UHGV virus genome: UHGV-0026213
Reading direction: 5' to 3' (one strand)
Length of the DNA stretch: 64,000 bases
Source: a virus
Below the pieces are notes generated by a model. That model had not been told where the DNA came from. It was given only the letters and a program-made list of their open reading frames with translations, and did no database searches. Below, piece by piece: positions 13,204 to 13,410 of this stretch (position 1 is the stretch's first letter; every line of letters starts with the position of its first letter). Position numbers and translations under genes: made by a program.

Positions 13204-13410
13204 CAGGTACTAAAATTTTACAGTCTGTCCCTTTATTCTGCTACTCGGGATACCGGTAGGGGGTAGGGGGCATTATGTATACGGATATAAATAGCGGAGG
13301 TATACGGAGTATACCGACATACTCTTCCCAGAGGAACGTAGTGACTTCCTTATACCTCTTTTACAATCCATAATAATAGCCTTCCCTTCATTGGGATTAG
13401 CGAGTAAATC

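Follow-up and report, generated by a model that had tools for sequence, protein, structure and literature searches.

DNA mini-hairpins with GNA loops have been described in several phages and plasmids. The sequences GCGNAGC and GCGNNAGC form extraordinarily stable DNA mini-hairpins, which are found in the complementary-strand (primase-dependent) origins of phages G4, St-1 and alpha3, in the single-strand initiation (ssi) site ssiA of plasmid RSF1010, and in the early promoters of phage N4 (PMC13037366). [quoted passage not shown] In conjugative plasmids, genes of the leading region are expressed from the transferred strand by way of single-strand promoters or ssi elements, which sit in gaps of 50–350 bp (PMC11541004). 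Here we describe a non-coding element of about 140 nt, called the cassette below, that carries two copies of a GNA hairpin module and most likely acts as DNA rather than RNA. It lies in the gap at positions 13204–13410 of a 64,000-nt stretch of the virus genome UHGV-0026213 (this whole stretch is called the window). As judged from distant blastn and tblastn matches, the window comes from a phiKZ-like jumbo phage that is a relative of SPN3US and phiEaH2. A possible reading, and the one that we tentatively favour, is that the cassette is a DNA-level GNA mini-hairpin acting as a single-strand initiation or origin signal.

The gap proves to be a conserved, structured, non-coding element, as a first reading made from the sequence alone had proposed. 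Homologous regions were gathered from GenBank phages, IMG/VR and metagenomes. A megablast search of the locus against phage genomes gave no match, and relatives were found only by distant blastn and by protein anchors. The minus-strand gene at 12024–12989 has matches (blastn, tblastn) among baseplate assembly proteins, including those of SPN3US, phiEaH2, Asesino, Kwan and Phobos, and the cassette adjoins this gene in Seoulvirus, Erskinevirus, Wellingtonvirus, Derbicusvirus and the clade of the window, with baseplate protein identity going down to 45%. Baseplate homologues adjoin it in all enterobacterial clades. There is one cassette locus per genome by BLAST and one pattern match per jumbo contig; no second copy was found in the window, where the sequence CGGAGTGAC at 52320 falls within a coding region.

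Read on the strand equivalent to the plus strand of the window, the order of the parts is T-run box, G-box, spacer, GCGGAGG, variable hairpin and GAC-N-TCC-TT(T)AT (Table 1). From the T-run box to the G-box there are 43–44 nt in most lineages, 39–42 nt in two and, in the Phobos/Derbicus/CR5 clade, 52 nt, with poorly conserved sequence in between. In relatives the G-box takes the form GGGGG-N2-4-GGGGG, and in Aeromonas phages and in Microviridae a GCCC-GNGTA-GGGC stands in the equivalent place. The spacer that follows ranges overall from 8 to 25 nt. The G-box lies 11–60 nt 5' of the first module, and in the window it is 84 nt from the second. Copy 1 of the module has conserved flanks (GCGGAGG and ACCGACAT), and a second, shorter copy, which in the window reads AGGAACGTAGTGACTTCCTTAT (13332–13353), is found in the window clade and in the phiEaH2 clade.

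Within the window clade the sequence from the T-run box to the TTAT is almost invariant, and both flanks are mosaic: some members have the mini-ORF (open reading frame) M1, others lack it or have it frameshifted, and there are differences both in the first gene and in the 50 nt ahead of it. In SPN3US, phiEaH2, STsAS, SNUABM29 and Asesino a 105-amino-acid gene, the homologue of SPN3US gp174, is located 3' of the cassette. This gene is missing from the window clade, where instead a promoter and M1 have been inserted on the other side of the cassette (12990–13410, compared with 4734–5346 of L001 and 4705–5322 of L002; L numbers are our own handles for loci). When these were inserted between the T-run box and the baseplate gene, the T-run box was kept with the G-box. 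In Phobos, Derbicus, CR5 and L012 the next early-type promoter comes 3' of the cassette, and in the Aeromonas phages the cassette stands alone between two converging genes and their terminators. The sequence-only reading had tied the element to read-through from M1 into an array of paralogues starting at 13411. Such a role is not supported, as elsewhere (SPN3US, phiEaH2, Kwan, Phobos, Aeromonas phages) the element is found before a different gene, before the next early-type promoter or between converging genes, and M1 is missing from three close relatives. A remnant of the gp174 gene was considered as well and seems improbable: in relatives the cassette is upstream of gp174 and not within it.

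Table 1. Position, strand and conservation of the cassette, its parts and the adjoining features (coordinates of the window)
Feature	Position	Strand	Remarks
Baseplate assembly protein gene, syntenic anchor	12024–12989	−	PHROG 3216, E = 7e-114
Early-type promoter motif CAGATATATATTACTTAAGTGA (context, outside the cassette)	13019–13040	+	recurs at 17407
M1 mini-ORF, 26 amino acids (context)	13124–13203	+	divergent yet similar peptides in L004–L006
Non-coding cassette, about 140 nt	13216–13353	+	conserved across five jumbo-phage genera
T-run box TTTTACAG (TTTTTTACG in most relatives)	13216–13223	+	in every enterobacterial clade
G-box GGTAGGGGGTAGGGGG, core GGGGG-TA-GGGGG at 13259–13270	13255–13270	+	exact core once in the window
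AT-rich spacer, variable hairpin P1 in some clades	13271–13294	+	22–25 nt in long forms, 8–17 nt in short forms
Module copy 1, long form GGA-[GGTATAC-GGA-GTATACC]-GAC-A-TAC	13296–13322	+	perfect 6–7-bp stems in five lineages
Module copy 2, short form GGA-AC(GTA)GT-GAC-T-TCC-TTAT	13333–13353	+	matches GGARCGNAGYGACNTCCTT; inner-stem covariation
Window-specific TATACCTC + TTTT (3' arm of closing stem)	13351–13362	+	pairs with 13297–13304; unconserved in close relatives

As to the hairpins of the cassette, from the letters alone a perfect palindrome GGTATAC-GGA-GTATACC (13299–13315), a hairpin GAGTAT-ACCGAC-ATACTC competing with it (13307–13324) and a small hairpin AGGAA-N9-TTCCT (13332–13350) had been picked out. 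These and the other motifs listed at the time, including GGTAGGGGGTAGGGGG (located at 13255–13270), are all in the sequence, with one pairing arm off by one base, and the palindrome proves to be a genuine hairpin whose stem covaries. The second, small one is of the same type as the palindrome, and the two competing hairpins together with the small one amount to two tandem copies of one module, plus cross-pairing between the copies. This module reads GGA-[stem-C(GNA)G-stem]-GAC-N-TCC-TTAT. It has a 3-bp foot of GGA and TCC, an upper stem of free sequence, on its 3' side a GAC that is unpaired and invariant, and at the end TT(T)AT as a tail. Only the GGA/TCC of the small hairpin is conserved, its fourth pair failing in 8 of 20 lineages. 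The direct repeat GTATACGGA that had also been pointed out is present at 13277–13285 and 13300–13308, but it is broken in close relatives, in which the second copy is GTATACGTA.

Apart from the 7-bp palindrome, neither strand of the 64-kb window has a C(GNA)G hairpin whose stem reaches 5 bp (0.12 are expected for a 7-bp stem). Long-form stems have 6–7 perfect pairs (GGTATAC, GGTATCC, GGTACCC, GGTACTC and GGTGAC) in five lineages, among which the inner 2–3 pairs differ. Each long stem is matched by at most 20 of 20,000 shuffles, no wobble occurs in about 34 long-stem base pairs, and the GAC and the foot are the same as in the short form. The long forms of phiEaH2 and STsAS have 4-nt loops; MAFFT misaligned these two lineages, and the long stems were scored per lineage. 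In the short form, the pattern GGA-[R-C-(G-N-A)-G-Y]-GAC-N-TCC is paired in 100% of the cells over 22 lineages, which none of 500 shuffles equals and no slid register comes near. Compensatory changes in the inner stem of these 22 lineages run from G-C to A-T in seven sequences and from C-G to T-A in one. When R4, N7, Y10 and N14 were left free in the search pattern, the matches had G-C at R4/Y10 in 118 cases, A-T in 28, A.C in 4 and G.T in none, and the four A.C matches are isolated contigs outside the conserved contexts. The middle base of the loop (N7) takes G, T, A and C; the G and the A of the loop were part of what the search pattern prescribed, and in the syntenic jumbo copies they are invariant. 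It should be kept in mind that most copies of the module were found with a pattern derived from jumbo phages, so that conservation at the fixed positions is partly by construction, and that a fair test must rest on the free positions, on the contexts and on the syntenic copies. Both copies in the window have C:G-closed GNA loops, C(GGA)G in copy 1 and C(GTA)G in copy 2. With G and A fixed, the middle base free, and GCGTAAGC alternating with GCGTTAGC (in a bacterial repeat described below), the variation of the loop follows the GCGNAGC/GCGNNAGC mini-hairpin rule.

These data also bear on the idea of an ordinary duplex regulatory site, in which a phage protein would bind the T-run box, the G-box and the repeated GAC-N-TCC and thereby set transcription of the baseplate gene, of the rightward genes, or of both. 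A spacing of 43–44 or 52 bp between the boxes is about four or five helical turns, with unconserved sequence in between, as would suit a protein bound to duplex DNA. phiEaH2 has two copies of a 13-nt direct repeat GACATCCTTATTC at a distance of 26 nt, and in the enterobacterial clades the cassette is always upstream of the baseplate gene. However, the stems vary freely while remaining complementary, which fits a folded strand and not a duplex operator, an asymmetric GAC bulge would be meaningless in a duplex, and the copies in Aeromonas phages, Microviridae and plasmids have no baseplate gene nearby. A duplex site of this kind is, in our judgement, very unlikely.

A more serious question is whether the hairpins work as RNA. 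In this case, which widens the RNA idea of the sequence-only reading, rightward transcription would start from a promoter of the cassette itself, near the T-run box, and a conserved 5' leader or a short non-coding RNA, formed by the G-box and the hairpins, would control, attenuate or stabilise downstream expression. RNA folding does beat shuffles: for the whole gap z is −2.25 (plus strand) and −1.86 (minus strand), and a 76-nt junction folds just as the sequence-only reading had drawn it, with z = −3.0. In SPN3US, phiEaH2, STsAS, SNUABM29, Asesino and Kwan the features directly 3' of the cassette are a ribosome-binding site and an ORF, without an intervening early-type promoter, and in L009, L011 and L012 terminators made of a hairpin and a T-run lie 40–60 nt downstream, which would give a stand-alone RNA of about 150 nt. 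The Aeromonas cassette is located between two terminators, behind AT-rich promoter-like sequence, and the T-run box of Kwan resembles the early promoter motif. Judged by eye, weakly paired P1 hairpins with G.T wobbles (plus strand) can be drawn in L009, L011, L012 and SPN3US; as RNA these would be U.G wobbles on the plus strand only, and one G-to-A change restores a Watson–Crick pair in L047 (also by eye).

The RNA structure had been drawn as a three-way junction ending in a U-tract, closed by a long-range pairing. The 3' arm TATACCTC at 13351–13358 and the TTTT at 13359–13362 are where they were said to be, but the partner GAGGTATA is at 13297–13304, one base further to the left, and both the closing arm and the TTTT vary in close relatives. 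In relatives with a 93–98% identical baseplate protein TATACCTC becomes TATTCCAG, TATCCCTT, TATTCCTT or TATTCCTC, and the TTTT is lost or changed in some. This arm and its TTTT partly overlap the conserved TTAT tail of copy 2, and a terminator scan lists nothing in 13204–13410. A three-way junction that ends in a U-tract is not supported. It is unusual for RNA to have long wobble-free stems and loops of the GNA or GNNA type whose middle base is free. The module is antisense to the gene that it precedes in L061, in L098, in plasmids and in the window; the cassette of the window clade is inside an early operon, and must be read through; and Phobos, Derbicus and CR5 have no gene before the next promoter. 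The proposed RNA has no Rfam match even at E ≤ 10: Rfam 15 gives no family in the window (best E = 4.6 in 12950–13450) and none at the module in Microviridae, other phage and bacterial loci. Four core sequences of 11–12 nt appear in the literature searched only as unrelated primers. The hairpin module is conserved and covarying, but a pattern of variation typical of RNA is not supported, and the GNA/GNNA loops, the wobble-free long stems and the wide distribution point to DNA, without proving it. We consider a structured RNA rather unlikely, yet a serious rival.

The distribution of the module extends well beyond jumbo phages. The pattern GGARCGNAGYGACNTCCTT matches at least 120 IMG/VR contigs. 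Among the matches listed, 89 copies are in genomes of about 6 kb that code for both an HUH Rep (Pfam REP_ORF2-G2P) and a capsid protein of the Phage_F type, that is, in Microviridae, and 89 of these 89 are on the gene strand, which is the packaged one, with none of them in an ORF of at least 100 amino acids. Here, the module is found within a hairpin-rich non-coding spacer of about 400 nt, and 13 nt upstream of it there is a GCCC-GCGTA-GGGC hairpin, an arrangement like that in the Aeromonas jumbo phages. GenBank relatives of these Microviridae come from dog, lemur and human faeces. The spacer contains a fixed series of hairpins in L063 (2583–2966, minus strand) and in about 90 related IMG/VR contigs, and is unannotated in most GenBank records. 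Directly after the module there is a covarying GGAGCG/CGCTCC or GAAGCG/CGCTTC hairpin with TATTTT, which looks like a terminator. In other phage contigs the module is placed in long non-coding stretches, and in L113 and L146 it is repeated in tandem with a period of 46 nt. In L061 and L098 it is on the template strand upstream of a gene, opposite to the adjacent genes, and the geometry in the window is the same.

In bacterial sequences, a stricter 21-mer was found in 63 stretches, against about 4 expected by our own estimate. The module is present in plasmids of Erwiniaceae, Kosakonia and Enterobacter, 42 of the 66 plasmids being predicted as conjugative. The plasmid copies belong to the leading region, where their neighbours are psiB, an antirestriction gene and methylase genes, and lie in the gap upstream of yubD on the strand opposite to the genes. 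As an example, plasmid LA637P2 of Erwinia amylovora (L235, 5174–5502) has a GC-rich gap of about 330 bp upstream of yubD with GCGAAGC and a variant of the module, again on the strand opposite to the genes; this gap is a candidate for a single-strand promoter or ssi element that is not detected by similarity to F. BLAST gave no link between the element of the Erwiniaceae plasmids and F-type plasmids of E. coli.

Other bacterial copies are repetitive. In one Endozoicomonadaceae genome there are about 25 copies (L174, L176, L178 and about 20 further loci), each of them being the exact 3' end of a repeat of about 160 nt, in which similarity stops within 5 nt of the TTAT. The repeat contains three mini-hairpins, and it also has GCGTAAGC or GCGTTAGC, alternating, plus GCGGAGC; it looks like a small non-autonomous mobile element. 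In Saccharibacteria (L182, L231) the module occurs as tandem 25-nt units, and in Desulfobacterales (L194, L185, L228) as several copies per genome within long inverted repeats. In the latter, the module is located in the loop of an inverted repeat of about 30 bp that is built of TCGAYGTTCR-like words. At two Legionella loci GCCCAAC precedes the module, and one of them, L210, has an attC-like GTTGGGC on the other side.

Such copies raise the question of whether the cassette is the end of a mobile element or a nickase site, that is, a recognition hairpin for an HUH-type Rep, a relaxase or an IS200/IS605-like transposase. The jumbo-phage copy would then be a domesticated one, a relic, or a nick site of the rolling-circle type. 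The precise repeat ends in Endozoicomonadaceae, the inverted repeats of Desulfobacterales and the GCCCAAC and attC-like flanks in Legionella would agree with this, and Microviridae have an HUH Rep, which would nick the strand that carries the module. On the other hand, the cassette is single-copy and syntenic in five jumbo genera and has extra boxes of its own, which would be unexpected for a selfish insertion; no transposase or Rep gene adjoins it in the window, and a target site or end structure is only putative. For the jumbo phages, we regard this explanation as distinctly unlikely.

We therefore return to the initiation signal. The free middle base, the GNNA rather than GNRA loops, the lack of wobbles and the settings in which the module occurs argue for a signal that acts as folded plus-strand DNA. 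An ssi site is expected in non-coding DNA on a strand that is single-stranded in vivo, and this is where the module is found in all 89 Microviridae copies listed and in the plasmid copies. Of the two roles suggested by the sequence-only reading, a regulatory RNA and a site recognised by a protein, it is recognition by a protein or enzyme that fits the data best. In the jumbo phage, the mini-hairpins would form when the plus strand is single-stranded or extruded from supercoiled DNA, and would resist melting. They would mark the start site for an initiating enzyme, with synthesis taking place on the hairpin-bearing strand; candidates are a primase, an RNA polymerase that makes a primer or a transcript, or possibly a nicking enzyme. 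In window coordinates synthesis would proceed leftward, across the spacer and the G-box towards the baseplate gene; the plasmids, L061 and L098 have the same geometry. On this view, the phage replication origin or a special start site would probably include the cassette. What is shown is the conservation, the single copy, the covariation of the hairpins, the loop rules of DNA type and the presence of the module where, according to the literature, DNA enters cells as a single strand. Hairpin formation in this double-stranded phage, the reader enzyme, and the direction and product of initiation are what we infer from this line of argument.

The cassette also coincides with the main switch of gene orientation and with the minimum of the cumulative GC skew in the window. 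It lies in a divergent region, with the baseplate gene on one side and a block of rightward genes starting at 13411 on the other. The orientation switch, the skew minimum and the single copy are weakly consistent with an origin or start site.

As for the described systems, the early promoters of N4, whose hairpins are read by the virion RNA polymerase, share with the module a partly free stem of 5–7 bp, a 3-nt loop GGA or GAA, closure of the loop by a C:G pair, and a sheared G.A. In the window, copy 1, with its stem of 7 bp and its GGA loop, is on the template strand of the baseplate gene. In contrast, the A-tract ruler and the +1C of N4 are not conserved here, the flanks differ, and N4 has no counterpart to the GAC bulge, the GGA/TCC foot, the TTAT tail or the G-box. 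A PHROG scan covered 50 window ORFs (64 kb of a genome of about 225 kb), and among the first 25 of the 56 families, from which the results are taken, there is no single-subunit virion polymerase of the N4 type. The origins of the Microviridae G4, St-1 and alpha3, and phiX174, share an intergenic hairpin with a GCGNAGC or GCGNNAGC mini-hairpin on the packaged strand, and the module of gut Microviridae is placed likewise. Reading the sequences, we find that GCGAAAGC adjoins the annotated primer site of G4, and that the F-G spacer of phiX174, which we take to contain the PriA recognition site, has AGCGAAGCG followed by GGTAGG. There is no wider sequence similarity to either, and the CTG primase start of G4 is not consistently present at the module. 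An analogy with the G4 primer by way of the word GTAGGG was also tried and dropped, as in Microviridae this word is on the wrong strand.

The ssi and Frpo elements of plasmids (RSF1010 ssiA/ssiB) share hairpins on the entering or exposed single strand, upstream of early genes, and the plasmid copies of the module are in just such gaps; ssiA of RSF1010 likewise has a GNA mini-hairpin. Frpo differs in being a long imperfect hairpin that mimics −35/−10 hexamers, and no sigma-70-like site is listed in 13204–13410. A further possible likeness is to R-loop origins in which the non-template strand is G-rich (ColE1 RNA II, T4 oriF/oriG, mitochondrial CSB II), with an AT-rich promoter-like box and G-runs on one strand, followed by a site at which the displaced strand could fold. 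Here the G-box differs in having two G-runs only, and an ordinary GCCC/GGGC hairpin takes its place in Aeromonas phages and Microviridae.

Several points weigh against an initiation signal and should be set beside it. RNA folding is significant (z = −2.25 and −3.0), whereas with DNA parameters the fold is no better than shuffles (z = −0.4); we suspect that the nearest-neighbour DNA energy model may miss the special stability of GNA loops, a class marked by unusual thermal stability, resistance to nucleases and poor binding of SSB. Apart from Microviridae, all carriers of the module are elements of double-stranded DNA, the plasmids among them being transferred in single-stranded form, and the jumbo phage is not known to have a single-stranded stage. 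In nucleus-forming phages most host proteins are believed to be kept out, and a host primase or PriA might therefore fail to reach the DNA. As the module of Microviridae, L113, L146 and L089 is on the sense strand, mRNA could contain it there. The cassette of SPN3US and phiEaH2 is directly before an ORF that has no other recognisable promoter, as a promoter with its leader would be. The likeness to the G4 and phiX174 origins ends at the mini-hairpin and the hexamer, and no primase start triplet is consistently present at the module. GC skew tracks gene orientation, which means that the skew minimum is not independent evidence. In the literature searched, there was nothing relevant in the way of SPN3US transcript maps or jumbo-phage origins.

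One can take the argument a step further and propose that the 21-nt module with its upstream GTAGGG box is a widespread, so far undescribed single-stranded DNA initiation signal with a conserved reader enzyme, used in Microviridae, in conjugative plasmids and in some bacterial mobile repeats, which in nucleus-forming jumbo phages would mark an unmapped replication origin or priming site. We hold this wider proposal to be doubtful, and offer it as a cautious suggestion.

Some further candidates for the cassette were tried and rejected. The statement that the gap has no ORF is nearly true: two mechanical ORFs of 32 amino acids cross it (13273–13371 on the minus strand, 13275–13373 on the plus strand), and their peptides, compared by eye, show no conservation in relatives. 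Also rejected was a mini-ORF on the minus strand that would start at the conserved ATGTCGGT, its peptides varying in length and sequence between clades and its ribosome-binding site being spaced too closely (by eye). A mimic of the 3' end of 16S rRNA (ACCUCCUUA) is exact only in Phobos and L011, with a key position being variable. Candidates known from other systems, namely a boxA-like CTTTTAAC, a kink-turn, a CsrA site, a CRISPR-repeat mimic and domain VI of a group II intron, each appear to clash with a conserved feature, among them the variable loop base and the lack of a domain V upstream. No tRNA or tmRNA was found.

The surroundings of the cassette in the window appear to be those of an early transcription unit. 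AT-rich early promoters can be found by sequence in every jumbo phage that encodes its own RNA polymerase (PMC7598289). The motif CAGATATATATTACTTARGTGA resembles such promoters, which places the gap inside a putative early unit. The motif is found at 13019–13040 and 17407–17428, with weaker copies at 35081–35101 and 44200–44220, all of them on the plus strand, intergenic and ahead of rightward blocks. A CAGATATATATTACTTARGTGA-type motif is also present 3' of the cassette in Phobos, CR5 and L012, and 3' of gp174 in SPN3US and phiEaH2, and it is very likely the early (virion RNA polymerase) promoter of this phage group. The order of the putative unit is the promoter at 13019, a hairpin, M1, the gap, five genes and a terminator at 17350. 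The cassette itself does not qualify as an early promoter of the phiKZ type, with its repeated AT-rich motif of about 10 nt: in the window that motif is the CAGATATATATTAC... found at 13019 and 17407, and the cassette is single-copy and G-rich.

Directly 3' of the promoter motif there is a stem-loop GGCTGAA...TTCAGCC at 13044–13066 (plus strand), the stem of which covaries in relatives from the window clade. Together, the promoter and stem-loop at 13019–13066 recall what we take to be the promoter-plus-stem-loop cassettes of T4-type phages. L003, L039 and L043 have lost M1 by deletion, and in L013 and L040 it carries a frameshift. Either M1 is a small accessory gene that is in flux, or it is no gene at all. 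On the far side of the baseplate gene, an 11-bp hairpin CTCCTACCCTC-TTA-GAGGGTAGGAG is found at 11563–11587, just past the end of the rightward gene 10294–11556. It lies in an ORF-poor gap that reaches to the 3' end of the baseplate gene at 12024, and looks like a bidirectional terminator.

The word GGTAGGG occurs in 10 copies in the window, with 3.9 expected and none of 100 shuffles reaching 10; the sites include 4972, 8536, 12876, 17755, 19216, 26904 and 42057/42068. Three GGTAGGG copies are just 3' of gene ends (26904 and 42057/42068, the latter two forming an inverted pair) and look like terminator stems, which agrees with the recurrence of GTAGGG in terminator stems pointed out by the sequence-only reading. 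Further genes of the window encode a beta-like subunit of a multisubunit-type RNA polymerase, a UvsX-like recombinase and an SbcC-like protein.

In the literature searched, no mapped replication origin was found for phiKZ-like nucleus-forming phages, in which DNA synthesis has to start within a compartment that excludes most host proteins. The hairpin cassette, with its single copy, its deep conservation and its place at the main switch of gene orientation, offers a concrete candidate for such an origin that can be put to the test. If the RNA alternative were true, the cassette would represent an uncatalogued phage RNA motif with an unusually broad distribution. That one 21-base hairpin is common to giant phages, to single-stranded phages of 6 kb, to the leading regions of plasmids and to multicopy bacterial repeats suggests a shared reader enzyme, and the hairpin is a simple sequence handle for finding sites of this kind in metagenomes.

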